A stretch of 64,000 nt of DNA from NCBI GenBank assembly GCA_039189765.1, contig JBCCYL010000027.1:9923-73922 (forward strand), read 5' to 3'. The notes under the pieces were generated by a model, which saw nothing but the letters and a program-made list of their open reading frames with translations, searched no databases and was not told the DNA's origin. The position numbers and the translations under genes were made by a program. Below are positions 24,687 through 49,500 of the stretch, one piece after another; within the stretch, counting starts at the first letter, position 1, and the number at the start of each line of letters is the position of its first letter. Origin of the DNA: Cyanobacteria bacterium P01_F01_bin.150. GTDB lineage: Bacteria > Cyanobacteriota > Cyanobacteriia > CAKZMO01.

Positions 24687-27600
24687 CTATTTCCATGACG
24701 CTAGCTCAGTTTGCCAATGGTTAAACGCTGACTGCACCTGATTACGACGAGCCTCAAAGGTTGCTGCAATCCAGATTAACGCTAGCCCTAAGAAAATACC
24801 CACTGCCCAGATCTGCAACGGATGTTGGCCAATAAATTGACGAGTATATCGAAGAACTTCAAATAGGAGCGTCCCCGTGCCGACAAACAGATAGGCGCGG
24901 GTTTTTAATTGAATACCGACCGCAATCAGAACGAGACTGAACCCTAACGTAAACACCGCCGTCCAAGGACTACTCTCAGACTGGTAGACACTAGCAAAAC
25001 AAATCAGTCCTGTGGCTAGGGTCCGAAGAATATGGCGTGTTTGTCTAGAATCTGCATGATTGCTCAACGCTGGATCGACTTCAGCAATGTATAGAATCGC
25101 TCCACCCACGTCTAAGCTAACCCAGAGCAGTCGAGTCCAGTCCTGCAATGAGATAAACCACAGCAGTGCCCAACTGATAAAGCCAATCGAGAGATAGCTG
25201 ATGCGAATTCGTCCGGTGGATTTTGCCAACCACGCATAGAACGCGGCCACAATCAGAATGCTAGGAATATTCGTATCCTGTGCCGTGAGCACCATAACAA
25301 TGCTGGGCAATACTAGCGTGCTTTGCGCCCAGGGTTTGGGTGGCCAACCCCATCTCTGCCAGGGCAATTTATATAGAATAAATGCTACACAAGAGGCGAT
25401 CGCCCCACCCCACGTCACAACCGCATCACTTGGGACAAAGGAATATAACGTAAAGGCGATCGCACCGATAAGCTGCCAGATACCCACAAACGTCCACTCT
25501 GGCGATCGCTGACGCCCCCAAGCCAAGGCATAGGCCGCCAAAGCTAAGAACGTAATCGACCCTAGCCCATCCCCCAGCAGACTGCGAGGGGATATAACGG
25601 CTAAAACTCCCAGCCCCGTGGATAAAAACCAATGGCAATGACCGATGGCAGACACATCGTTAATGCTCAACTGTAGATAGGTCTGAAACCAAGGCTTGAA
25701 GCGTCCCCATGCCCCCACACCATAAAAAATCGTTAGCCCCAATCCTAAGCCCGCCAGAATCATCAGACCATCACCACTTTTTCCCTCAGACGCCTGCTGC
25801 ATTTGATAAATCAGCAGTTGATACGCTGCCATGGTGATAATTCCCGCAGCCAAAATAGTAAGGGCTTTCCAACGAGGGTTCCGTCGGCCTATGCCAATGG
25901 CAATAAAAGCAAATGCGAGGGTATACAGCCCTGTACTAGCAGTAAACGGAATTTGGGATAGGCTCCAGCCGAGGATGCCGTAGAAAAGAGGGATTAGGAG
26001 AGTTGGAGAATTTTGGATTTTAGATTGTGGATTGTGGATTTTGGAGGGTTGAGGAGTGAGGGAGTGAGGGAGTGAGGGAGTTGGAGAGTTGGAGAGTTGG
26101 AGAGTTGGAGAGTTGGGGCGGTTCCCCTCTTGGGAGGGGCTAGGGGTGGGTTCTTTTGCCTTCTGCCTTCTGCCTTCTGCCTTTTTTCCTGTCTTCTGCC
26201 TTTCTGCCTGCTTTTGATTGGGGAGTAGAAGTTGGGAGATTAGACCGAGGGAAAGAAGAGCGCTCCCCAGGGTGGTTGCGGTACCGTGAAGGCTGGAGTT
26301 GAGCTGGGCTGTGAGTAGTCCGGTAATCCAGGCTATTCCTAGATAGGTCCATTCACGCCCCCAGATGCTGAGGCTGGAGCGGTTAAGGGATCGATACAGG
26401 AGAGAGCAAAGAAGAAGCACACTGGCGATCGCGGCTTGCCATGCGTCTTTGGGGGAGACGAAGGATGCATAAAGGAGAAACGTATATATATTTCCACCCA
26501 ACAGCAATATTGTAGTGATGGCGATCGCCCATCCGTTACTGGCGCGACGATACAGCGTTGCCATTAGGGATGATTGGCAGTGTAGGAGCGATCGCAGAAC
26601 CCACAGCAAGCCGGGGGTAAATGACCACAGATAGAGCTGCTGGTTATCAAAACCAAGTTGATAGGTTGTCACCCATAAACCCAGCACTGCACTACCCAGG
26701 CTAAGAGAAGCTGTCCATAGTGAGCGGGTTAAAGGAACGCCGAGGAATAAGGTTAGTGCATTGAAGCCAAAGATCCAGCCATTGGCACCATCAATATTAA
26801 AGAGAAGTGGTTGACCGGCTATCAGAGCTAGGGTACTTAACCATCCTGCTAGCTGAGGAGAAAATTGGATATCGGTGGACTGAAATATTAAGTGGGGTGA
26901 GGTTATAAATTTAGTGATGGACTGAGTTTTGGATGCCTGTTTTTGGGAAGCCTGGGCTGGGCGGGATGAGGAATCCGTTTGATTTGTTTGACGGAGAATA
27001 GGGCGTGCTTTTAAGGAACGATGGCCTACATAGATCAGCATGGGCGGAACGAGTAACCATGCTGTACACAAGGGATTGTAAGGGTCAGTAAGAAAGAGAC
27101 CGTAGGCGATTGCCCCCAATCCCAATCCTATTATCCAGGTGGTTTGTTGACTTGCAGAGACCGCTAGATGGCTATATATTCCCCATTCAAACCCCGTCAG
27201 TATGACTAAAATTACGCCCCACTGGATGGGTGTAAGGGTCGGCATCAACAGCTCAATCCAGGACAGCAGGGTTGCTAGGCTTAAGCTATGGATACTGTAA
27301 GCCCAGATTAGAGCTTTCTCGGTAGATTTTTTTGTAGATGGCTGTGTGGATTCCTCTGTAGATTCCTCGAAAGGAACAATGGACTGATGGTGGTGTGCTT
27401 GGCGACGAACAATCCCCACTGTGATGGTGGAGGCAAGTAAACTGAGCGATCGCGTCATGGGGTTCGACAAGCTGATAATTGTAAGACAGCTGCCCAATCC
27501 CAGGGCCATCCAATCGGCCTGTCGGCTTAGACGCTGTTTCTGGCGCTGGCGTAGATATTGTCCTCCTGCCAGCATGACCCACACGTAGGGAAAAAGCGTC

Positions 27601-28967
27601 AGTCCGACTAATGCAGTGGGCATTCCTTGATTGCCGGACAGACGAATGCACAGATCTAGTAGATAATCGCGCCATATTCCTGGCACTAATCGCTCCATTA
27701 ACCAGAGGAGCTGAAGACCCACCATAAATAGGGCAATCAAATCAATCGATCGCCAGTGGCGTAGGAGGCGATCGCCCAATAACCACAGCCCCAAACCGCT
27801 GACAATCAAAGCCTGCCACGGTGGATTAGCGTTTACGGAGACCAGCCATCCCAACAGCAGCAGCTTGGCCCCGCCTTTTAGCCATAAATCTCCACCTGTA
27901 TGGGTCGGAGTACGGGAAATCCAGCTTAAGACCCATCCGCATAGACCAATGGCTAATCCTAGCTGGCTCCAAGGCACTTGCCCGACGGTAACGGCCCGAA
28001 TCACCAGCAGGAAGGTGGCAAAGGCGATCGCAATCAAACCCAGTGGCACACCATCCCGCTCCAGACTCGCCTCAGGCTGATCGGCATCCTCAACTCCATC
28101 ATCGACCTTAGGCTTTTCTTTCCTGCCCTTAAAATAGGTGACCTGATATCGGCTGACTAATAATGCCGTACCAACAGTTCCCACATAGGTCGCGATTAGG
28201 GGCATGGGCGGTATATCCCAGCCCCAGTGCAAACCGCTGAGGGCAATGGTGTTGACGGCGGCGAGGAAAGAGGTTGAAGACTTGGTCTGGACGAGGGCTA
28301 GAATCATTGCGCTAAGGGCGATCGCCGCAATGATGCCAATACCCCAGCCCAAGACACTGCTCCATAGCCCCAATCCATCAATCATCCAAAAGTTAATGGG
28401 GATAATCAACAGCGTTGCGATTCTCAGCATCCGCGAGGTAAGCCTTAGATTAGCCTGACGCTGGGTCCAAGTGCCCACGCCCCAGAAGGCTAGGGTGTAA
28501 AGAAATAAAATACTGTACTGTCCCGGTGGAGACACCGTCTGCCATTTACTGGCTGCCAGTACAACGGATGACAGCACCACCAAAAAGACACCTAGAAACA
28601 GCAGCCAGGTAATACTAAAGTTATCCATAACCGCTTGGGTCAGGCGAGGAATTAAAGGTGGTTTGGGTGGTGATGCCTTTGTAGAGGCAGTCGCCGCCAC
28701 AAAAGTAGGCTTGGCTTTTGCAGTAATAACGGCCGGGGATGCAGAAGCGGTAGCAGCAGACACCTGAGATTCCACGGGTAGACAATCAGACAGGGTCACT
28801 GCGCAGCTCAAGTACTGCTGGCAGTTTTCTCGGACCCACTGATCCGAAATCAGCCCCAATTTTACCCATGCATCCAATCCTTCTAAGAGGTTGGGGTCAT
28901 TCACTTTTGGGCGAATGGTAAGAGTTTGGGCTGGCAAAAAACTCTTAGGCTGTTTGGGGGATTTCAT
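24687..28967 (-). CDS. Large polytopic membrane protein (DUF2157-like) with in-frame repeat insertion
   Basis: LLEGLDAWVKLGLIS, WLLFLGVFLVVLSS..LAA, many TM segments, C-terminal WIAATFEARR; probable start MKSPK. Confidence 0.8.
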   Translation of the reverse strand: MKSPKQPKSFLPAQTLTIRPKVNDPNLLEGLDAWVKLGLISDQWVRENCQQYLSCAVTLSDCLPVESQVSAATASASPAVITAKAKPTFVAATASTKASPPKPPLIPRLTQAVMDNFSITWLLFLGVFLVVLSSVVLAASKWQTVSPPGQYSILFLYTLAFWGVGTWTQRQANLRLTSRMLRIATLLIIPINFWMIDGLGLWSSVLGWGIGIIAAIALSAMILALVQTKSSTSFLAAVNTIALSGLHWGWDIPPMPLIATYVGTVGTALLVSRYQVTYFKGRKEKPKVDDGVEDADQPEASLERDGVPLGLIAIAFATFLLVIRAVTVGQVPWSQLGLAIGLCGWVLSWISRTPTHTGGDLWLKGGAKLLLLGWLVSVNANPPWQALIVSGLGLWLLGDRLLRHWRSIDLIALFMVGLQLLWLMERLVPGIWRDYLLDLCIRLSGNQGMPTALVGLTLFPYVWVMLAGGQYLRQRQKQRLSRQADWMALGLGSCLTIISLSNPMTRSLSLLASTITVGIVRRQAHHHQSIVPFEESTEESTQPSTKKSTEKALIWAYSIHSLSLATLLSWIELLMPTLTPIQWGVILVILTGFEWGIYSHLAVSASQQTTWIIGLGLGAIAYGLFLTDPYNPLCTAWLLVPPMLIYVGHRSLKARPILRQTNQTDSSSRPAQASQKQASKTQSITKFITSPHLIFQSTDIQFSPQLAGWLSTLALIAGQPLLFNIDGANGWIFGFNALTLFLGVPLTRSLWTASLSLGSAVLGLWVTTYQLGFDNQQLYLWSFTPGLLWVLRSLLHCQSSLMATLYRRASNGWAIAITTILLLGGNIYTFLLYASFVSPKDAWQAAIASVLLLCSLLYRSLNRSSLSIWGREWTYLGIAWITGLLTAQLNSSLHGTATTLGSALLSLGLISQLLLPNQKQAERQKTGKKAEGRRQKAKEPTPSPSQEGNRPNSPTLQLSNSPTPSLPHSLTPQPSKIHNPQSKIQNSPTLLIPLFYGILGWSLSQIPFTASTGLYTLAFAFIAIGIGRRNPRWKALTILAAGIITMAAYQLLIYQMQQASEGKSGDGLMILAGLGLGLTIFYGVGAWGRFKPWFQTYLQLSINDVSAIGHCHWFLSTGLGVLAVISPRSLLGDGLGSITFLALAAYALAWGRQRSPEWTFVGIWQLIGAIAFTLYSFVPSDAVVTWGGAIASCVAFILYKLPWQRWGWPPKPWAQSTLVLPSIVMVLTAQDTNIPSILIVAAFYAWLAKSTGRIRISYLSIGFISWALLWFISLQDWTRLLWVSLDVGGAILYIAEVDPALSNHADSRQTRHILRTLATGLICFASVYQSESSPWTAVFTLGFSLVLIAVGIQLKTRAYLFVGTGTLLFEVLRYTRQFIGQHPLQIWAVGIFLGLALIWIAATFEARRNQVQSAFNHWQTELASWK
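25997..26210 (-). repeat. Composite short-repeat element (GGCAGAA)n + CCCACCCCTAGCCCCTCCCAAGAGGGG + octamer and heptamer repeats, in frame
   Basis: Read directly; same module order as 42137-42300. Confidence 0.85.
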
Positions 28968-29256
28968 AAGCGGTTTACGGCTTGAGGATAGACTTCGATA
29001 AGACGACTGATACTCTAGGTAACCCAAACGGCATCCCAAATCATTATCACAATCGCCACCGAACTGCTGCCATTATACTGATGACGTATTTTATAAATTT
29101 AACCCCAGGCCACTTTGATGTGCCGGTTTTTGGTAAGGTTGCAACAACTCAATCAGTGGCTTAATGCCAAATAATGAGGCATAACGCTCTACTCCTTTGT
29201 ATTAAAGCCGTTACGCCAATGCCCACTAAGCGCAGCTGAATTACCCGTTACTCTCT

Positions 29257-30677: not shown

Positions 30678-30794
30678 TTAATTCCCAGTAAATTCGATGC
30701 TTAAACTGAGAATAAGTTGTCCTAACCTCAAAGCTACATGTAAACGTTGAGACACACTACAGATTCTCTCAATCATCTTATTGCAGGGGGCGTT

Positions 30795-32123
30795 ATGGCA
30801 GGGCAGGTATTGCAGTCGGTTAAGAGTGGAGTTCAATCATGGTTTGCGAAAGCACCCAAGCTTGAAATCAATGAGGGTCTTGAAGCGCTACCCTCCGAAA
30901 CCATGGCCCAGCTTAGCCAGAATGTCCAAGCCTTATCGGTGCCAATGCCCTATCAATCAACCATTGAGGGGGCACTGAGCCGAGCTTTCCAAGAATGGCA
31001 GGAACAACCGGAAATCAATAATAGCTTGGTGATTCTGGGGTCTCCGGTGGATGCGATCGCCCCCACCTTAGAAACAATCCTCAAATCCCCTACCTCCCCA
31101 TCCCAACCTCCAGAAGCCTGGCGACAGGCAAAAATCCGATTTCCCCTCGAACCCAGTCGTTCCGCCGATCCATTAACCATTTTGGACGAGTTACGTAAAG
31201 CATTGGACCGGGTCAACTTGGAGGATTTGGAAACCCTGGAACAGGAAGATGCCCAAGTCGATCCGGAAGACGGAGCTATAGCAGAGGCACCCACAGAGCC
31301 TATTAAATCTCCCACTATCGTTGTTATTCCTAATTTAGAACGATATTTCCTACGCTGTATTCAAGGTTGGGAAAGCGTCGAATATGTGCAAAATTTGGTC
31401 GCCCATGAGCCGTCCTATTTTTGGGTCTTGGGCTGTAGCCACTGGACATGGGCGTTTCTAGACCGGGTGTGTCATATCAGCGCCTACTTGGAGCAGGTCG
31501 AATCTCTTCCTCAGCTTACTGGCGAGGAGCTAGAACAGTGGCTCACTCCCTTGATGGCATCTGCTGCGGCTACTATCAATCCATCCCAGGCACCCGATGA
31601 TTCTCCCCCTGCTTCTGAGACTGGTTCCGAGACTGATTCTGGCTCCACCTTAGATTTTGGTAGTGATGGCTATTGGAACAGCCTCGCCAATCTATCATCG
31701 GGGATTAGCACCACTGCGGCACAGCTGTGTCTCCAGTCATTGCGTATGCAAGCTGAAGACTTGGCTAATAATCAGGTTGATGATACTCAGGAGCAGACTC
31801 GCCGAAATGCCCATCAGACCGAAGCAGTTTCTGACCCGTCCTATCGCCTACGTCTTAAAAAACCGACATTGCCCTCTCTGATCGATTTGGACAGTATGGA
31901 TCGCTATCTACTCCATGCCCTATTGATCCACGGCAAAATGATGCGATCGCACCTCGCCCTCAGCCTAGGGGAAGCCGAACAAACCATTCGCCCACGGGTT
32001 CAAGTGCTGCGTCGCGAAGGCGTGATTATTCAACAGGGCGTTTGGCTATGGGTCCATCCCGTTCACTATCCCAAACTCCGCAATGAACTGGGTAACAATA
32101 ATTTCTTGATTGGGGAGGCTTAG
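30795..32123 (+). CDS. Hypothetical protein with degenerate P-loop NTPase-like domain and C-terminal winged helix
   Basis: LVILGSP (Walker A-like position), IVVIPNLERYFLRCIQG (Walker B-like), LHALLIHG...LALSLG...VQVLRREGVI. Confidence 0.6.
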   Translation: MAGQVLQSVKSGVQSWFAKAPKLEINEGLEALPSETMAQLSQNVQALSVPMPYQSTIEGALSRAFQEWQEQPEINNSLVILGSPVDAIAPTLETILKSPTSPSQPPEAWRQAKIRFPLEPSRSADPLTILDELRKALDRVNLEDLETLEQEDAQVDPEDGAIAEAPTEPIKSPTIVVIPNLERYFLRCIQGWESVEYVQNLVAHEPSYFWVLGCSHWTWAFLDRVCHISAYLEQVESLPQLTGEELEQWLTPLMASAAATINPSQAPDDSPPASETGSETDSGSTLDFGSDGYWNSLANLSSGISTTAAQLCLQSLRMQAEDLANNQVDDTQEQTRRNAHQTEAVSDPSYRLRLKKPTLPSLIDLDSMDRYLLHALLIHGKMMRSHLALSLGEAEQTIRPRVQVLRREGVIIQQGVWLWVHPVHYPKLRNELGNNNFLIGEA

Positions 32124-36858: not shown

Positions 36859-37539
36859 TCATGCTTGGCTCAACATTTCAATCAGGGCAGGCTTTTTCAG
36901 TTTGGAGTATCCTGAGAGCTTTCGTTTTTTTGCCATCGCCTTCAGCTCGGTAGCTGTGAATAGTTCCAGAAAAGCTGGATCAGTTATTACCTCTGGCATT
37001 GGTTCAGGCTCCAAAAAGAAGATTGTCCCCAATACATCTAACTTCTTACCTCCAGTGATTCCACATTTTAGCTTTGGAATAGGCTTCAGGTTTTCCCAGT
37101 ATTGCCGTCCTGGAGCTTCGTCAATGCCTGCAATCGCAGAAGCGAGATTGACTCCTTTTAGAGGTTTATCGGGGAGTGATTTCAGGTAATCTAGTGCTGC
37201 TGAAATTTCATCTCGGCTAGCTGTCGAAAGATTGGTCTTGGGCGTTAACTCACCTGCTAGTGCCTTAGTCATCGCAATCGACTCTGGGGATGGATCAATG
37301 ATGATGCACCAGACTTCTTTCGCTTCAGCCTCAGCAGCAACTGCATAGACAAATGAATTGCCGACTACTTGGTATTGTTCAACATCCACCTCTTCCACAA
37401 TAAGAGGGACCCAGTTGCGATCGCTCCCTAGTAAATTGGCCGTTGATTGGATTAGGTATTCATGGGCGTCAGTTGGATCACCCGGTTCAATATCATCAAA
37501 CGGCAAGCACATTAAATTGCCAACAATTGAAAGGCTCAT
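36859..37539 (-). CDS. Degenerate ParB-like N-domain + helix-hairpin-helix + Rho-N domain protein
   Basis: NWVPLIVEEV...YQVVGN...AAEAEAKEVWCII; NLSTASRDEI; TATELKAMAKKRKLSGYSKLKKPALIEML. Confidence 0.7.
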   Translation of the reverse strand: MSLSIVGNLMCLPFDDIEPGDPTDAHEYLIQSTANLLGSDRNWVPLIVEEVDVEQYQVVGNSFVYAVAAEAEAKEVWCIIIDPSPESIAMTKALAGELTPKTNLSTASRDEISAALDYLKSLPDKPLKGVNLASAIAGIDEAPGRQYWENLKPIPKLKCGITGGKKLDVLGTIFFLEPEPMPEVITDPAFLELFTATELKAMAKKRKLSGYSKLKKPALIEMLSQA

Positions 37540-38885
37540 TAGACAAAGTACTCCTTGATTAAAAGTTTGTACTGATCACGAACATTTTTGTAGTTAAAAG
37601 CAGCCGGTACATGAAGAAAGTCAGCCTTTGAAACATAAGCCATATGAGGGATAGCAATCATTTGAAGATTCTGCTTCCCAGGCGTCTTTTTGGGATAAAA
37701 GAACGGCGTTAGGTTGTACCCATTCGCTTTGCCCTTTTTTATAATCGCAGCGATCGCCTCATGCATCAGCCTAATTTGGGCAGGAGCTTCTCTGTTGGCA
37801 TTGTTCATAAAAATGGGTAATGCCATAGGCCCAGCCTCTCCATATCTACCCCGTTCAGCTTGAATCTCAGGGATATATTGGGTAATAACGGTACCTGCAT
37901 TCTGAAGGGAATGTAAGTTGTCATGTCTTGCCGGAATTAAGACCACATCAGCCGCAAAAAGAGCGAGCTGGGAGAATATCCGCCAATTTGGTGGGGCATC
38001 AATCAGGATATAATCGTAATCATTTTTGACAGCCTTAATTGCTTTCTGTAAGGCATTCCAGCGAAGTTGTTGCCTCAGCTCAACTTCATTAGTTGTGGTT
38101 ACCATCTCTTCATCAGCCAGAACAACATCAAAGCCGATGGGCTGCTTCAACTTGGGATGTTGAAACACGTATGGCTTGATGACCTCTCGAATATCCGCCC
38201 CTTTTAACACGCCCAGCATTTGCCCATAAATAGGAGGCATGTTTAGTGAATCCCCTAAGTCGCTTTGGTTGGGATCAAAGTCAATAATCAGAACCTTTTT
38301 GCCTAGAACTCTTAATGTAGCTGCCAGGTTAATCGTGGTGGTAGTTTTCCCAACCCCCCCCTTATTGTTATAGATAGCAGCCACTAACGCTCGTTTAGGA
38401 CTATGAATCGTTTCCTTGAGAGTGCCGATGAACTTCTCAACATCATCGAATGGCATCAACGGAGTCATCGGGTGAACAACTTTCCCGTGCCTTCGAAATA
38501 GTTGGATGTCAATGGAGTTGGTTAATATCCCCCATTTTGCCGTCCTCGATTCTGACCCGAGCAAATATCCTTTTAGTTGAGCAGCTGCCTTGGTATAAAT
38601 TTTATGGCCTTTGGCGAATGTCTCAGTCCTCCCCTTGACTTCCATACAGAGGAATGGGTTAACTCGAGTGTGGGCAAAAATGTCACCATCGTCCACATTT
38701 TTGCGGGCAGCATGGTCAGCAATCCTTGAAGGCCTATTGTTTGCCTTAAATCCGGGGGCGATTTCCATATCGCCAAACCCCAATGCATTTAGAAGCGGCT
38801 TCGAAAAGATAGCTTCGACAGCGGCTTCAGGAGCGTCAGGGGCTAGAGCTTGTAGAGCACGCTTCACCTCATTTATATATTCCAT
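37539..38885 (-). CDS. ParA/Soj-family ATPase with N-terminal HsdR_N-like restriction-nuclease domain
   Basis: NNKGGVGKTT, IIDFDPNQ, YDYILIDAPP; N-terminal IADH..., MEVKG, QLKGY, WGILTNS..IQLFR. Confidence 0.85.
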   Translation of the reverse strand: MEYINEVKRALQALAPDAPEAAVEAIFSKPLLNALGFGDMEIAPGFKANNRPSRIADHAARKNVDDGDIFAHTRVNPFLCMEVKGRTETFAKGHKIYTKAAAQLKGYLLGSESRTAKWGILTNSIDIQLFRRHGKVVHPMTPLMPFDDVEKFIGTLKETIHSPKRALVAAIYNNKGGVGKTTTTINLAATLRVLGKKVLIIDFDPNQSDLGDSLNMPPIYGQMLGVLKGADIREVIKPYVFQHPKLKQPIGFDVVLADEEMVTTTNEVELRQQLRWNALQKAIKAVKNDYDYILIDAPPNWRIFSQLALFAADVVLIPARHDNLHSLQNAGTVITQYIPEIQAERGRYGEAGPMALPIFMNNANREAPAQIRLMHEAIAAIIKKGKANGYNLTPFFYPKKTPGKQNLQMIAIPHMAYVSKADFLHVPAAFNYKNVRDQYKLLIKEYFV

Positions 38886-39316
38886 CGGGACTCAACCAGT
38901 AACGACAAGCGTATGGCCAAATATTAGCCTTGCTTATCTGTTACCATACCCATACCCTTGCCTATTCATGCATTCTTTACAAATATGTAGTTAGTGCATA
39001 AGTTTCAAGGCATTTACGGTATTTGTTCAGATCGTGGCAATGGTGAAAGTCGTATTGGTCCTTTTGAGCATCATGATTTGATTGGACCATTTCACTCTTG
39101 GCTATCGTGAATTAAATCCCAGGATTGTAGCTTGATCTCAGGGTGATTTTTCTACACACGACAGTCTTGACGCAACGATTGCCCTAAAACTGCCTGAATG
39201 TTTAGAGCGGTCAGGCCAAAATAGGGAAGAGAGATCGGATGCCTATACTGTGTAGAGTAAAAATAGAATTCCTGAAAATAATACAGCTTTTTTATCGCTG
39301 AAGGTTGGTGTTCGGT

Positions 39317-40584: not shown

Positions 40585-41133
40585 ATGACTCTAGAACCCA
40601 CTACTGTAATCCTTCAAGCACTGGATTTTGCGGCCCGAAAACATAAGCATCAACGGCGTAAAGGCTTTGATGCGGTTCCTTATATTAATCATCCCATTGA
40701 ATTAGTAACAGTGCTTTGGCACAAAGGTGGAATCCGAGACGAAGTCGTGATTGCCGCAGCCCTACTCCACGATACCGTTGAAGACACGGATACCAGTTTT
40801 GATGAGTTGGAGCGGGAATTTGGTGTGGAAATTCGCAACGTTGTGGCAGAAGTGACGGATGATAAAACTCTTCCCAAAGCCGAACGTAAGCAACAGCAGA
40901 TCGATCATGCGCCCTATCTCACTCCTCAGGCACGGCTGGTCAAACTCGCCGATAAGATTGTCAATCTTACAGATATGCTGGTCGCCCCACCGAATAATTG
41001 GTCCAAGCAGCGCAAGTATGAATACGTGCAGTGGGGAAAACGAGTGATTGACCCCATTCGAGGCACTCATTCTGAGCTAGAGAGACTGTTTGATGAGGTC
41101 TATCGGCAGGGGGTTGAGGAGTTTGGGAGTTGA
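40585..41133 (+). CDS. HD-domain small alarmone hydrolase (Mesh1/HDDC3-like)
   Basis: FAARKHKHQRRK, PYINHP, AALLHDTVEDT, EVTDDK, VKLADKI. Confidence 0.88.
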   Translation: MTLEPTTVILQALDFAARKHKHQRRKGFDAVPYINHPIELVTVLWHKGGIRDEVVIAAALLHDTVEDTDTSFDELEREFGVEIRNVVAEVTDDKTLPKAERKQQQIDHAPYLTPQARLVKLADKIVNLTDMLVAPPNNWSKQRKYEYVQWGKRVIDPIRGTHSELERLFDEVYRQGVEEFGS

Positions 41134-41232
41134 GGGGTTGGGGAGTTGGGGAGTTGGAGATGCGTAGGATGTGTTAGGCGACAACCGTAACGCATCATCG
41201 GGATTTTGGTTAGGGAGTTGGGGAGTTGAGGC
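41110..41232 (+). repeat. GGG(G/A)GTT(G) short tandem repeats spanning the HD gene end
   Basis: ggggttgaggagtttgggagttgaggggttgggagttggggagttggag ... gggagttggggagttgag. Confidence 0.7.
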
Positions 41233-41294
41233 GGTTGAGAATGCTATGGAATCAGGGTTAAGTTTTTTGGGGATTCTGTCTTTCATGGTGAACA

Positions 41295-43550
41295 ATGGAA
41301 GAGTTGTTAAGCCGCTGCAAAAGATTGAACTTTACGCCTCTTTCCCCGTCTGATTCTGCCTCATCATCAAGTTTTGACTCTGCTATTAGTGCGCCATTTG
41401 TACTGAACTCTATGAATAGAGACCGCTTTAAATCATTGGCAGCGATCGCCACGACGCCACAGGGTGCGCGATTACTAATCCCATTATGTCAAGCGGTTAA
41501 TCAGGCACACAATAGCAATCAGGATAGAGCGTCTGAACATCAAGCTAGGGAAAAAATGGTGGTGTGGGTGCCTTTATCCGTTGCATCAACACTGTCTGAA
41601 TCCGAGGTGATGAAATGTTACGACAGCTCCTTAAAGGATCACTTAGCAAAGCTATGGCCTGAAAAGCAAGGTTTTATTTTTTGTTTGGCCATGGGAGCTG
41701 TCGTGCGACTAATTGCGCCACTGCTTCAAGATAAACAGTACGATCCAGCAGTGGTAGTAGTAGATGAAAACGGTCAATATGCCATTAGTGCTTGCAGTGG
41801 CCATCAGGGACAAGCCGATAATCTGGCTCGATGGGTGGCCACTCAGCTCGATGCAGAACCTGTACTAACGGGGGCGGCAAATGGCGATCGCCGTGTTGGG
41901 ATTGATGTTTTGGGACAGCCGTTTGGCTGGCGGAAAGGACCAGGAGACTGGACTGGGCTGAGTGCTGCGATCGCCCGCCAGGAAAGGGTGCACGTTATCC
42001 AAGACGCTGGTTCTCAACTGTGGCAGCAGCACCTTCCTAAAGAACATTCTTACGAAATTCATAACCGTTCAGTGTCTAACCCCCAGCCTGCATCTGACTT
42101 GTCTGCCTCTCCCATTGTGTGGATTAGTCCGGTTAAGGTAGAAGGCGATACAAGGCAGAAGGCAGAAGACGATACAAGGCAGAAGGCAGAAGGCAGAAGG
42201 CAGAAGGCAGAAGAACCCACCCCTAGCCCCTCCCAAGAGGGGGACCGAACCATCCCAACTCCCCAACCCTCTAAAATCCAAAATCTAAAATCCAAAATCC
42301 TCCAAGTCCAGTGGTATCCGCGTGTGCTTTGGCTGGGGGTTGGTTGTGAGCGACACACGCCACGATCGGTCATTGAGACGGCGATTCAGAAAACGCTGGC
42401 TCAATATCATTTAGCGGAAGAGGCGATCGCTGGGGTGGCCACCATTGATTTAAAGGCTGATGAACCGGGGCTGGTGGAGTTGTGTGGCGATCGCCAATGG
42501 CCACTGCATTGTTTTACAGCCGCCCAGCTCAAAGATGTTGACGTGCCCAATCCGTCACTGGTTGTCAACCAAGTTGTTGGCACGCCCAGCGTTGCAGAAG
42601 CAGCCGCTATTTTGGCAGGGTCTGGAGTATCCACTGCTCACTTCAAGGATTTAGGCTCGAATCTAACTGATGCATCTGATCGTTCTGCATCTCCAACTCT
42701 GATTGCAACGAAGCAAGTTCATCGCTTGTCGGACCAACCAGGCGCTGTCACTCTGGCGATCGCCCAATCCCCAGTCGAATATCTTGGGCGTACTGGTTCA
42801 TTAGCTTTAGTGGGTATGGGGCCTGGACAGCTCGACCAAATGACGCCTGCGGCGAAGGGGGCGGTTATCAATGCAGATGCTGTCATTGGCTATGGGTTGT
42901 ATCTAGATTTGGTTCGGCCTATTTTAAGGCCGGGCCAAATTGTTGAATCGTTACCGATCACCCAAGAGCGACAGCGGGCTGAAAGGGCAGTCGCATTGGC
43001 ATCTTGGGGCCTTTCGGTGGCAGTGGTTTCTTCTGGCGATTGCGGGATTTATGGGATGGCTGGATTGGTAATGGAACAATTGCAGCGGAATGGTTGGAAC
43101 GGTCATACCCCTGGGGTACGGGTCTTTCCAGGAGTGACTGCGCTTCAGGCAGCGGCAGCTCGGGTTGGGGCTCCATTGATGCACGATTTTTGTGCCATTA
43201 GCTTGAGTGATTTACTGACACCCTGGGAGGTCATTGAGCGACGGTTAGAAGCTGCTGCTAGAGACGATTTTGTCACGGCCCTTTACAACCCCAAGTCAAA
43301 AACTCGCGTGAAGCAAATGGCGCTCGCCCACAAAATTTTTCTCAAATACCGCTCTCCTGAGACGCCTGTAGCGCTAGTCCGCTCAGCTTATCGCATGGAT
43401 GAACAGATTGCTCTCACCACCGTGGGCAAACTTCTGGATAATCCCATCGATATGATGACGCTGGTCTTGATTGGAAATAAGAGTACGCAAAGATTAGAGG
43501 AATGGCTGATTACACCGAGAGGCTATTTTCCCCAGCACGCTGAGCATTAG
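41295..43550 (+). CDS. cobJ: CbiG-CobJ(CbiH) fusion, precorrin-3B C17-methyltransferase
   Basis: CbiG motifs (GAVVRLIAP..DK..DPAVVV, GVGCER, SVAEAAA) followed by VGMGPG, VSSGDCGIYGMAG, HDFCAISLSDLLTPW, TPRGY; alternative start 41412. Confidence 0.92.
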   Translation: MEELLSRCKRLNFTPLSPSDSASSSSFDSAISAPFVLNSMNRDRFKSLAAIATTPQGARLLIPLCQAVNQAHNSNQDRASEHQAREKMVVWVPLSVASTLSESEVMKCYDSSLKDHLAKLWPEKQGFIFCLAMGAVVRLIAPLLQDKQYDPAVVVVDENGQYAISACSGHQGQADNLARWVATQLDAEPVLTGAANGDRRVGIDVLGQPFGWRKGPGDWTGLSAAIARQERVHVIQDAGSQLWQQHLPKEHSYEIHNRSVSNPQPASDLSASPIVWISPVKVEGDTRQKAEDDTRQKAEGRRQKAEEPTPSPSQEGDRTIPTPQPSKIQNLKSKILQVQWYPRVLWLGVGCERHTPRSVIETAIQKTLAQYHLAEEAIAGVATIDLKADEPGLVELCGDRQWPLHCFTAAQLKDVDVPNPSLVVNQVVGTPSVAEAAAILAGSGVSTAHFKDLGSNLTDASDRSASPTLIATKQVHRLSDQPGAVTLAIAQSPVEYLGRTGSLALVGMGPGQLDQMTPAAKGAVINADAVIGYGLYLDLVRPILRPGQIVESLPITQERQRAERAVALASWGLSVAVVSSGDCGIYGMAGLVMEQLQRNGWNGHTPGVRVFPGVTALQAAAARVGAPLMHDFCAISLSDLLTPWEVIERRLEAAARDDFVTALYNPKSKTRVKQMALAHKIFLKYRSPETPVALVRSAYRMDEQIALTTVGKLLDNPIDMMTLVLIGNKSTQRLEEWLITPRGYFPQHAEH
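42137..42300 (+). repeat. Second copy of the composite repeat element, in frame in cobJ
   Basis: (GGCAGAA)n, AACCCACCCCTAGCCCCTCCCAAGAGGGG, (TC(C/T)AAAA)n. Confidence 0.85.
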
Positions 43551-46540: not shown

Positions 46541-49500
46541 CTACTTCTCTAAAACAGATGTCTTTTGCCGCTTCAAAATAACCAATGTAATATCGTCAAA
46601 AATCGTATGGTTGCCAATATGCTGATGAACGTCTGAAATAACTTCCTGGCGAATCATATTAGACGACTGGTGAGCGTGCTGGCGCACAACGTCACAGAGT
46701 CGCTTGATTCCATAAAACTTATGCTCTTTATTCTCAGCTTCAGTAATTCCGTCCGTATAGAGAACGGCTACATCACCACGTTCTAGGAATACGGTTTGAT
46801 GAGAAATAAAATCACTAATATCCATGTCCAGACCAATGGGAAAGCCTAAATCAATCGTGTCAAAGCGTTCTATTGTGCCGTCACATCGCACAATAATGAG
46901 TTCCTCATGTTGACCACTCAAGCGTAGCTGGCCATTGTCATAATCCAACAGCGATAAGGTGAGATTTTTATCCGTACCCATGCGCTCAATATTTTTATAA
47001 AGGGTGCGGTTGACAATATCCAAAAATTGAATAGGGTCTTTTTCTCCACTTTCCTGGAGTGTTCGCACAGCGGTTTGGACCATAAGCATCAATACGCCAC
47101 TTTCTAACCCGTGTCCAGTGACATCGCCAATGCCAATTTTAATGCCTGCCGATTGAGGAGAATTGTCCTGTAATACATCATAGTAATCCCCCCCTACTTC
47201 ATCTGCCGGAGCCATAAACCCAGCAATATCTAGATCTCCAACTCCCTCCAGCTCCTGCGGGTTCGGTAAGATCATTTGCTGTAGCTGTTGGGTAATTTCT
47301 AGTTCGGCCGTCAGTCGGTTATTTTCTTGCTCTAATCGTTGATTAAGGGCTGTAATTTCTTGATTGGCGTTGGCCAACTGAGCGGTTCGTTCCTCAACTT
47401 TGTCTTCGAGAGTTCGATATAAAAGGGCATTTTCAAGCGAAATAGCGGCTTGAGATGCCAATATCGTCACTATATCAAGGCGATCGCGCGTAAATGTCCC
47501 TGCGATCAGGTTATTTTCCAAATAGACAAGGCCCAGTAATTTGCCCCGATCCAGAATAGGTGCACACAAAATTGATTTAGGTCTGCGTTCAAGAACATAA
47601 GGATCCTGGGTAAACTGACCTGACTGGGCCGCATCTGCCAACACAATGGCCTGTTTCGTTCGCTGTACATACTGCACAACAGAGCCAGGAATACTATCAG
47701 ATATTGATTCACAACCACGGGCTGAGGTATCGGCAGAGCTGTGAGTAGAGCTGTGGGCCGAAGAGTTATGGATAGCACTATTTAGGGATTGAGAGAGCTG
47801 AGTATTGATTCCTTCTACAGTGCCTTTTGCTTCAATACTCAGTCCGTCAGCCGTAACTAAAACTAATAGCCCCTGCTCTGCTCCTGCATTTTCAATTGCA
47901 AACTGCATTAGTTTTGCCAGCAATTTATCTAGCACAATTTCGCTGGAAATGGTCTGGGATGACTTTAAAACCGTCATTAAATCGAGGGTTGAACTGACTT
48001 GGGTTTGAGTCCCACCCCTTGCGGTAATGGTTGAACTATAAAGCTGGCTTGGATTGCTAATTTGGGGTGCACCTGGAGAAAGATGGCTAATATGGCCCTC
48101 CAAACTACTCGCAGGGGGACTTAGCTCTAAAAGATCTGCATAGTTCGTTTCCAGATGGTGAACTTTGGCGATCGCTCCCCACCTTAAATAACACTGGTAA
48201 GCATCCTTGAGAAAGACCCGAGCAATTTTGGGTTTCCCCCAAACGACATAGAATTTTGCAGCTAGCTCACAGGCTAATGCTTCTTCATGGATAAACCCAT
48301 TGGCATTGGCGGATGCGATCGCCCGGTCGTAATAGTCCATTGCCTCGCTGTACCGAGCCTGCACCCGACACCACTCGGCTTCCACCAGCTCATACTTTTG
48401 CTGGTGGTTTTCAGGGGCATGGGTCGCCCACTGACGCATTTTTTGCTGGTTAGCAGCAATCCGTTGGGCGATTACCTCTTGCTCTGTAAGCGAAACTTGG
48501 GGATAAACCGCTAAATGAGCCAGGGAGTCGTAGAGATGAAACGGAACAAAGGCAAATAAGGCAGCCGCCGCAGTCTTATAAGGTTCGGCAGCAGTCGCGT
48601 AGGCGATCGCATCGTCATACTGTTCAAATAAGTAAGCGAGGTGGAGCTGACACAGATGGGCATGGAAAACTCCGGTTTGCTCCTGCTGATGTTGCTTAAA
48701 GTCTGCGAGAATCTGGTCGTTAAACCGACTGCCAGATAGCTGGTAAGGATGGCCTGATGTGCTTTGCACATCATCGCCTTTGCCATCCTGTTGGGATTGA
48801 AGATTATCTTTGCCCAGAAGATTGAGGGTTGCTTGATAAAAAATATTGTTGTGAAACAGCGCCGAGTCTTGTTTAAATTGGCGAATAGTATCTTCAGATA
48901 CTTGCATTTCCTGCTCAAGTAAATTGAGGGGGCGGCCCATACAGAATAGATGTTCACACCGCACTAAAATTGCCCAAGATGCGTATTCCACATCGCCGCT
49001 GTCTCGACCCTCTTGATAAGCCATCATTAGTGGAGCGAGGGTATCTTTAACTGGCTTTTGCCAATGAACAATCATGCAGTTCACCATAAAGGCCGTCTTG
49101 GGCTGTATGTTGGCCCTACTTTTTTCATTATTGGCATTACCCGCATTATCCGCATTCTGATGGTTGGCCTGCTTCTTGCCATGCTCACTGGCGACGTTAT
49201 GGGTGCTACCGTCGTGTTTCAGCAGCTCTAGGGCTAGTTGGCCAAAAGCATACCCTGTGTCCACTTGGGCAAAGGGGCCACAAAGAAGAGTACCGTACCA
49301 TGCATAGACAAAAGGGGCGAGGGGGGTATGTCCCTCTTTAATCAGTAGCTGTACCTGTTTGGACACGATGGACGGCAGGTACCGAGGAACACCTACATAG
49401 GCGGCAGAGTTGGCGCTAGAGAGAATTTGCAAGGCGGCTCGGGATTGGGGAGATTCCATGGCTGGCAGATGGATCAGCTCCGCAGGGGTGCGATCGCCCA

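Follow-up and report, generated by a model that had tools for sequence, protein, structure and literature searches.

A predicted nuclease-ParA fusion and a degenerate ParB-like partner form a conserved gene pair in cyanobacteria

The gene pair and its predicted domains

We analyzed a 64,000-nucleotide stretch of contig JBCCYL010000027.1 (assembly GCA_039189765.1, Cyanobacteria bacterium P01_F01_bin.150), referred to here as the window, and within it a pair of minus-strand genes whose products appear to join a restriction-type nuclease fold to proteins of the ParA/ParB type. The features of this pair, by position in the window, are as follows.

37539..38885, minus strand: gene 1, nuclease-ParA fusion of 448 residues, slr0105 orthologue (open reading frame, homologues, structure model)
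38400..38885, minus strand: predicted PD-(D/E)xK endonuclease-type head of gene 1, residues 1-162 (DrdV fold match; HSDR_N_2 in relatives)
37542..38393, minus strand: ParA/MinD-type ATPase of gene 1, residues 165-448 (AAA_31; ParA and McdA fold matches)
36859..37539, minus strand: gene 2, degenerate ParB-like partner of 226 residues, slr0106 orthologue (open reading frame, homologues, structure model)
37243..37533, minus strand: ParB/sulfiredoxin-fold domain of gene 2, residues 3-99 (PadC, KorB and sulfiredoxin matches)
37009..37242, minus strand: ComEA-like helix-hairpin-helix (HhH) region of gene 2, residues 100-177 (ComEA matches)
36862..36984, minus strand: Rho_N/SAP/LEM-like helix-extended-helix tail of gene 2, residues 186-226 (Rho_N; Rho fold match)
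38886..39316, minus strand: intergenic region upstream of the pair, which must contain the promoter (no conserved operator, LexA box or centromere-like repeat)

An earlier note, made from the sequence without database searches, had described a two-gene operon with a TAATG overlap at 37539, and both the reading frames and the junction sequence bear this out. The stop codon of gene 1 (TAA, 37541-37539) and the start codon of gene 2 (ATG, 37539-37537) have base 37539 in common, the minus-strand junction reads ...GTC TAA TG AGC..., and an AAGGAG motif lies 12-17 nt before the gene 2 ATG. Gene 2 is therefore predicted to be translationally coupled to gene 1 via this overlap. Domain families in both proteins and their neighbors were assigned with Pfam profiles, NCBIfam and PADLOC-DB 2.0; AlphaFold models were compared with 48,161 PDB representatives, and Foldseek was also used. 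Domain scans were extended to 27 members of the gene 1 family and 29 members of the gene 2 family.

The larger part of the gene 1 product is a ParA-type ATPase with an intact switch. Its sole Pfam match is AAA_31 (residues 168-330, 110 bits against a cut-off of 27), which was found in 27/27 family members, and its NNKGGVGKTTT segment is a deviant Walker A motif (K175-GGVG-K180-T) accompanied by D202/D204 and D296. In the AlphaFold model (predicted local distance difference test score, pLDDT, 91.3; predicted template modeling score 0.91), residues 164-448 match ParA 8ray_A with a Z score of 27.9 and a root-mean-square deviation (rmsd) of 2.5 over 246 residues, and McdA 6noo_A with a Z of 25.4, while Foldseek aligned gene 1 to Soj 6iub at E 4.2e-16.

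The remaining residues, 1-162, form a head that resembles the nuclease domains of restriction enzymes. Residues 3-142 of the DrdV nuclease head (7lo5_A) match it with a Z of 12.3 (rmsd 2.8, 133 residues), and BpuSI does so with a Z of 12.0 over a less clean range. The head carries the motifs RIADHAARK (D57), MEVKG (E82, K84), AAQLKGY (Q103, Y107) and WGILTN (N123). In the model, D57 falls in the second core strand (54-60), E82 and K84 in the third (79-83), and Q103-xxx-Y107 in the helix that follows (95-108); the predicted head thus has the arrangement that defines the alpha-beta-beta-beta-alpha-beta core of the PD-(D/E)xK fold, with the aspartate on strand 2 and ExK on strand 3. It has been previously reported that the D...ExK...QxxxY set is found in HsdR and in RecB-family nucleases (PMC2475608). 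At the profile level, HSDR_N_2 matched 16/27 family members (best E 6.3e-8) and left the window's own gene 1 unmatched, and a profile-atlas look-up of the head returned leads below 0.9 only (HSDR_N_2, HSDR_N and BpuSI_N). The assignment of an HsdR_N-type head fused to an intact ParA, as first proposed from the motifs, is thus upheld by motifs, fold and AAA_31 match together. No helicase domain was found by Pfam in either protein, so that the superfamily 2 (SF2) motor typical of type I HsdR is missing, and the only PADLOC-DB 2.0 family reached by gene 1 was PDC-M28B, at 27 bits over the P-loop (residues 164-204).

Loss of the catalytic D/ExK residues among homologues, which the earlier note had named as telling against its proposal, is not what we found. 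We counted residue conservation over 189 distinct family sequences, distant members included: in the head, D57 is kept in 185, E82 in 188, K84 in 187 and Q103 in 186, and in the ATPase K175 is kept in 188 and K180, T181, D202 and D296 in all 189. The exceptions are shortened records or single substitutions. Such near-complete conservation suggests that the nuclease and ATPase sites are both under strong constraint. Full-length homologues of gene 1 are 44-82% identical to it, and since hundreds of full-length homologues exist, the architecture of the two genes is far beyond chance. Head and ATPase also appear to be obligatorily fused: head-carrying frames are about 445-496 residues long apart from fragments (54 of 401 genomes had a head match), and a search for stand-alone heads gave two fragments only.

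Gene 2 was likewise modeled with a pLDDT of 91.3, and these confident models of the two proteins confirm every domain call that had been made from the letters alone. Its residues 3-99 match PadC (Z 10.6), KorB (Z 10.3) and sulfiredoxin (Z 9.0); Foldseek ranked ParB, Noc and KorB at the top (ParB 7bnk, E 5.6e-6), in alignments of about 235 columns with rmsd above 13. The segment YQVVGNSFVY is present and places G60-N61-S62-F63 at the position of the ParB GERR motif, an equivalence that rests on sequence pattern and fold match, not on a residue-level superposition; N61 is invariant (29/29). The predicted ParB/sulfiredoxin N-terminus therefore appears, as had been claimed, to lack the arginine box with which ParB proteins bind cytidine triphosphate (CTP). 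R41-N42-W43 is invariant in the family, and the N-terminus reads MSLSDVGNLM with G7-N8-L9 near-invariant. Among Lys and Arg positions, R41 is the first to be conserved in the family, and an LG(R/K)GL-type ParA-activating peptide (as defined in 10.1101/2025.10.10.680097) is therefore missing.

Beyond this domain, residues 100-177 match ComEA-type HhH proteins only (8dss_B, Z 6.6; 2duy_A, Z 6.1), and no helix-turn-helix (HTH) family was matched in the scan of the gene 2 family. The tail, residues 186-226, matches residues 1-41 of Rho 1a62 with a Z of 6.7 and rmsd 1.3, and the Rho_N profile reaches residues 191-225 with 23.6 bits, below its cut-off of 24.9; the ComEA-like region and Rho-N tail of the earlier description are both recovered in this way. 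Across the 29 family members, Rho_N was matched in 29, ParB_N in 24 (weakly, best E 2.3e-4) and SAP in 14. Gene 2 probably binds DNA without sequence preference. Gene 2 matched 0 PADLOC families, and its profile gave only a chance hit (E 1.6) among PDB sequences.

The public record names gene 2 a "Rho termination factor". Only the 40-residue N-terminal helical module of Rho is matched, however, and the cold-shock-domain-like RNA-binding domain and RecA-type ATPase of Rho are missing from a protein of only 226 residues; the name is wrong. The wider family varies in its C-terminal part. The HhH is duplicated in some relatives (P0124, L029:9633-10553 and L032:9676-10620), and partners of 276-314 residues owe their length to a second copy of either the HhH module or the SAP tail (P0124, P0145, P0170, L029, L032). 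A short, tail-less subgroup of about 185 residues is paired with a more distant ParA (L034), and distant ParB-fold relatives occur in very long proteins with a Mu-type portal or ADP-ribosyltransferase domain (P0382, P0374).

Pairing, distribution and surroundings of the two genes

We compared 20 fetched neighborhoods and the 80 best loci of a species-representative collection, 68 of which hold the full pair. The gene 2 homologue is directly preceded by a gene 1 homologue in 20/20 fetched loci and in 76/76 species-representative loci with upstream DNA, and gene 1 is complete in 68 of the latter and partial in 8 (4 of these at a contig end); the remaining 4/80 loci end just before gene 2. In a presence/absence sample of 401 genomes from 156 genera, the partner was found in 55 and the head in 54; comparison of the two tables by hand gave 49 genomes with both, 6 with gene 2 only and 5 with the head only, and these single-gene genomes are mostly fragments, weak hits or members of a divergent subgroup. 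Identities between pairs of loci, taken separately for head, ATPase and partner, correlate with each other (r 0.84-0.87; 2278 pairs from the 68 loci; mean identity 0.51-0.62), which argues that the parts have not been shuffled. No fusion of gene 1 to gene 2 was seen among 30 long representatives scanned, and no third gene is conserved, as upstream neighbors vary among the 20 loci. Taken together, these comparisons indicate that the pairing is obligatory and that the two genes co-evolve.

The family is small and cyanobacterial. We found 511 homologues of gene 2; in a search of 1.84 billion representatives, 441 matched the partner at E 1e-3 and 38 at E 1e-30. A search of 185,579 species genomes gave 268 relatives, and among the best 80 of the 268 every taxonomically named one is cyanobacterial, from Nodosilineales, Leptolyngbyales, Nostocales, Pleurocapsales, Oscillatoriales and other orders. 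Exact-sequence look-up identified the orthologues slr0105/slr0106 in Synechocystis PCC 6803 and SYNPCC7002_A0332 with the next gene in PCC 7002; further orthologues are found in Microcystis, Rippkaea PCC 8801, Gloeomargarita lithophora and Synechococcus JA-2-3B'a. Presence is patchy: 55/401 genomes, 35/156 genera and 12/19 genomes within one genus, and in the window's own family 4/16 other genomes (own genus, 1/3). Some genomes have two or three copies, and one strain has a copy in each of the two deep clades of the family tree. Near-identical copies occur in this tree under different order names, and a single Nostocales clade was rejected (approximately unbiased test, p-AU 2.75e-8), the group having been chosen after the tree was seen.

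Plasmids carry the pair as well, in 3 of 72,556 plasmid records, and all three hold another partition locus, which is a ParM or a small ParA. In the family tree, the copies on the two Nostoc plasmids are placed apart. These plasmids (L013, L014) have a common backbone, made up of a PriCT-2 protein, ParM/StbA and a series of small genes, and on each a separate, diverged copy of the pair lies beside a small site-specific recombinase gene. The pair is therefore accessory in cyanobacteria, on chromosomes and plasmids. Strictly vertical core inheritance, the other finding that was to count against the earlier proposal, is not borne out either: patchy presence, paralogues and plasmid copies indicate that descent has not been strictly vertical. 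Genomic position is not conserved between relatives; the menC-HD synteny is kept in 6/9 and the opposite flank is not conserved. No empty insertion site could be shown, because the pair lies off the menC contig in the three family genomes in which both were located.

The genes within three of the pair differ from locus to locus and consist of housekeeping genes and common small nuclease or toxin-antitoxin (TA) genes. A small TA or nuclease neighbor was present in 12/20 loci, a count made without a background control, and cobalamin genes were nearby in 3/20, as they are in the window. We tested the 20 loci for defence neighborhoods with 118 neighbors scanned by Pfam and 116 by PADLOC (two very long proteins excluded). 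PADLOC found one complete known defence gene, Mrr, the rest being mostly generic cross-hits; other neighbor hits were weak ones to HNH, Uma2 and NYN.

We compared 300 nt upstream and 250 nt downstream of the 68 loci for regulatory sites and found no common repeat, palindrome or operator in these flanks except HIP1 and a heptamer run in Nostoc. This run comprises three tandem copies of CCTTTGC and one inverted copy within 250 nt downstream of gene 2 in three Nostoc loci (L086, L102, L113), and it is probably a local short repeat, not a common site, because four sister loci lack it. An Anabaena-type LexA box was found upstream of the pair in 0/69 regions and TTTTGWTNAC in 1/69; CTA-N9-CTA occurred in 8/69 upstream versus 10/69 downstream regions. 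No parS or other centromere was found at the operon in the window or the 68 loci, in a search local to the operon rather than genome-wide.

Literature searches found no published description of this nuclease-ParA/ParB-like architecture, and slr0105 and slr0106 are mentioned in tables or in passing only, with no functional study; the earlier claim that no functional description exists agrees with this, yet the pair is present and expressed as slr0105/slr0106. A 2025 survey of the ParB-CTPase fold used Pfam gathering cut-offs (10.1101/2025.10.10.680097), which the gene 2 family partner fails, and the survey's passages drawn on here mention no Rho_N, SAP or HsdR fusion. The published omics tables establish that the pair is expressed in the model strain Synechocystis. 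According to Table 1 of PMC4759255, disruption of lexA raises the slr0105 transcript 8.2 and 6.1 fold and the slr0106 transcript 5.6 and 4.1 fold, together with hspA, htpG and htrA; the effect may be indirect, because 315-360 genes rise in the lexA mutant in that report. At the protein level, Slr0105 is listed as up in hhoA and htrA mutants, where LexA drops (PMC4877387), and Slr0106 as raised over 8 fold in a strain that produces lactate (PMC4526308) and up in a dacA mutant, where the authors name it Rho factor (PMC12454622). In addition, slr0105 appears in a BLAST hit list (PMC8385029), and an antisense RNA, slr0106-as, is listed for the gene 2 orthologue in supplement file 8 of PMC7125299.

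In the window, the pair lies between ordinary chromosomal genes, as the earlier note had it. A Pfam scan of the flanks identified MscS, Uma2, a HemN-like radical SAM protein, a PIN-domain protein, MenC, HD_4, a CbiG-CobJ fusion and SepF. No DNA methyltransferase, specificity or replication gene was found among the 12 flanking proteins scanned and no repeat arrays lie beside the operon within the window, in keeping with the claim that no methyltransferase, replicon or obvious parS is nearby. There is no plausible small open reading frame (ORF) upstream of the pair in the window, and the GC content of the pair (0.45) is like that of its surroundings. The genome assembly (10.6 Mb, 350 contigs, 4.72% contamination) holds other ParA/ParB_N pairs, at C72:28476-29015 with C72:27940-28131, on C130 and on C22; the ParA gene on C72, the best AAA_31 match in the genome, is interrupted by an in-frame TAG.

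Several other features of the window were recorded. The HIP1 octamer GCGATCGC is found 82 times across the 64 kb, where shuffled sequences give an expectation of 0.72. The CbiG-CobJ fusion (41295-43550, plus strand) contains an internal low-complexity insert at about 42059-42373, with DTRQKAE... repeats followed by a PTPSPSQ-type stretch, between the middle and C-terminal domains of CbiG; GC skew is 0.218 at 41001-42000. Two ORFs, 24687-29039 (minus strand, 1450 residues) and 30747-32123 (plus strand, 458 residues), match no Pfam family at E 1e-5, and the longer one covers the bin with the window's strongest GC skew (0.296 at 26001-27000). A signaling giant of 1921 residues with Ser/Thr kinase, AAA_16, GAF and SpoIIE phosphatase domains lies at 46541-52306 (minus strand).

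A possible ATP-gated nuclease and its alternatives

The molecular picture is well founded: the ParA switch is intact, the restriction-type head looks competent, and the partner is CTP-blind and probably binds DNA nonspecifically. On these grounds we favor, tentatively, a self-contained, cyanobacteria-specific machine that descends from ParA/ParB and whose ParA ATPase cycle would control a restriction-type endonuclease; this is quite possible, though far from assured. The steps from dimerization to cutting, and the target, are what we infer. Upon ATP binding, gene 1 would form a ParA-type sandwich dimer on DNA. In type I and type IIG/IIL restriction enzymes, two nuclease heads must meet; the gene 1 dimer may likewise unite its two heads, and both strands would then be cut. 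Gene 2, apparently with neither a CTP clamp nor a site-reading HTH, would bind DNA nonspecifically through its HhH and SAP modules, and its ParB fold would contact gene 1 and switch the ATPase, and thus the nuclease, on or off. Our leading guess for the target is non-chromosomal or damaged DNA, so that the pair would survey or process plasmid or incoming DNA.

A number of observations weigh against this reading. No defence system accompanies the pair in the 20 loci, a weak negative given the missing background control; no domain shuffling is seen in the family across the 68 loci; the pair is essentially absent from viral contigs (one distant hit in IMG/VR), and BFVD gave generic ParB-like phage proteins only. 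HIP1 is present at native-like density, with 2 sites in the 2.0-kb pair versus 82 in the 64-kb window, and the divergence of the pair is similar to that of a neighboring housekeeping gene in family relatives. Several of these features look like those of a long-resident cellular function rather than of a conflict system. Furthermore, the HhH assignment of gene 2 rests on middling Z scores (6.1-6.6), conserved PD-(D/E)xK residues may also serve metal-dependent DNA binding without cleavage, and the module itself leaves the sparing of self DNA unexplained, with no methyltransferase or specificity domain in the proteins or their flanks.

The earlier note had inferred an ATP-gated nuclease with an anti-plasmid, anti-phage or TA-like role. 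Of this, the ParAB scaffold carrying a nuclease stands, and the defence or TA role has gained no positive support: the defence-island check that it had suggested returned no PADLOC family beyond the P-loop match and only Mrr nearby (without background control), and with no shuffling, native HIP1 content and near-absence from viruses, such a role is unsupported. A defence role is possible, being neither supported nor refuted. An addiction module that stabilizes the carrier replicon, with gene 1 as a DNA-cutting toxin and gene 2 as its labile or DNA-tethered antidote, seems very improbable to us. It would suit a coupled, mobile, accessory two-gene unit with plasmid copies, and the small TA or nuclease neighbors noted above (again without background control). 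Both proteins, however, are large, multi-domain and well conserved, and with the large enzyme encoded first, a ParA/ParB ancestry and no hit to a known TA family, the pair does not look like known TA pairs; in addition, knock-down guides for slr0105 and slr0106 persist in a pooled library, as far as its guide lists and sort counts tell. The rise of Slr0106 alone in proteomics (>8 fold) says nothing either way on this point.

We consider it unlikely, if less so, that the pair is a type Ia-like partition or positioning system in which the head has replaced the HTH of P1 ParA or F SopA as a DNA-binding or autoregulatory domain, without cutting. The partner would then mark a cargo, whether a plasmid, the chromosome copies of polyploid cells or another body, that is spread by a ParA gradient. 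A large ParA gene followed by a translationally coupled ParB-fold gene, intact ATPase residues, top structural matches to segregation proteins (Soj/ParA, McdA, ParB, KorB, PadC) and copies on three plasmids, in two of these next to a small recombinase gene, an arrangement frequent for par and res modules, are all consistent with it. Nevertheless, the partner has neither the CTP-box residues nor an HTH or ribbon-helix-helix match for reading a centromere, no Lys or Arg is conserved before residue 41 to act as an activating finger, and the loci have no iterated or palindromic repeat in common next to the operon, HIP1 aside. Each of the three plasmids is already equipped with a different partition locus, further ParA/ParB_N pairs occur in the window's genome, and the NCBIfam profile ParA_partition (NF041546) scores gene 1 at 76 bits, under its cut-off of 180. 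The strict conservation of the triad and QxxxY is moreover not required by mere DNA binding. We do not think that the pair performs classical segregation. Also unlikely, in our view, is an ancient, often lost function in cellular DNA processing that is linked to stress and not directed at foreign DNA, such as repair, recombination, resolution or turnover of the chromosome copies of these polyploid cells. Occurrence in many cyanobacterial orders, including the deep-branching Gloeomargarita and Synechococcus JA-2-3B'a, argues for it, as do native-like composition with HIP1, housekeeping surroundings, stable co-evolution and the increases reported for the Synechocystis pair in lexA, dacA, hhoA and htrA mutants. 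Set against these are the patchiness within a genus (12/19, and 1/3 in the window's own), the unconserved position, the multiple and plasmid copies, the Nostocales copies that do not form one clade (a post hoc group), and the absence of an Anabaena-type LexA box upstream in 69 loci, together with a lexA effect that may be indirect.

Returning to an ATP-gated nuclease, we suggest a wider proposal that we ourselves regard as doubtful: a ParA dimerization switch would take the place of a helicase or SMC/ABC motor in licensing a restriction-type nuclease on nucleoid-bound DNA, with a CTP-blind ParB relative as its DNA-bound regulator, and cyanobacteria would thereby eliminate or limit plasmids or incoming DNA, or cull chromosome copies. 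ParA/ParB systems are textbook DNA movers; if the proposal is true, their scaffold serves here for cutting DNA instead of carrying it. Both of the most used cyanobacterial chassis strains, Synechocystis PCC 6803 and PCC 7002, have the pair, so that its function is directly testable with existing genetics, and the outcome could matter for how stably plasmids are kept and how efficiently these strains are transformed.

Comparison with known systems

A comparable layout is that of type Ia ParABS systems (P1 ParA/ParB, F SopA/SopB), which likewise have a large ParA with an extra N-terminal DNA-related domain and a ParB-fold protein next in the operon; the deviant Walker A fold is common to both. 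The extra domain of type Ia ParA is an HTH, whereas that of the pair is a PD-(D/E)xK head, and where type Ia ParB has a CTP box, an HTH and a dimerization domain, the partner appears to have HhH and SAP modules instead, and no centromere repeats were found. With the heads of type I HsdR and type IIG/IIL enzymes (EcoR124I, BpuSI, DrdV), gene 1 has in common the fold, the D...ExK...QxxxY set and the fusion of the head to a DNA-bound engine driven by nucleoside triphosphate. This engine is an SF2 translocase in HsdR and a ParA dimerization switch in gene 1, and unlike these enzymes, the pair has no methyltransferase, specificity subunit or target-recognition domain, in the proteins or nearby.

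For the partner, the best matches to the first 99 residues are PadC of Myxococcus and KorB of RK2. Both work with a ParA-type ATPase, according to the ParB-CTPase survey (10.1101/2025.10.10.680097). PadC and KorB bind CTP, whereas in the partner GNSF takes the position of the arginine box and no HTH was matched. McdA/McdB carboxysome positioning is likewise a cyanobacterial case of a ParA-type ATPase with a non-canonical partner, but McdA has no nuclease head, McdB is not of the ParB fold, and no carboxysome genes lie near the pair. The same logic as that proposed here is found in the anti-phage system Menshen (NsnABC), as described in PMC12065111, where a DNA-binding sensor of the ParB superfamily, an ATPase transducer and a nuclease effector act together. 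In that account, Menshen consists of ParB-DUF262, an ABC ATPase and separate RNase effectors and shows heavy domain shuffling, whereas in the pair the ParB fold is of the canonical type, the ATPase is a ParA and the DNA-nuclease head is fused to it, with no shuffling and no PADLOC hit.

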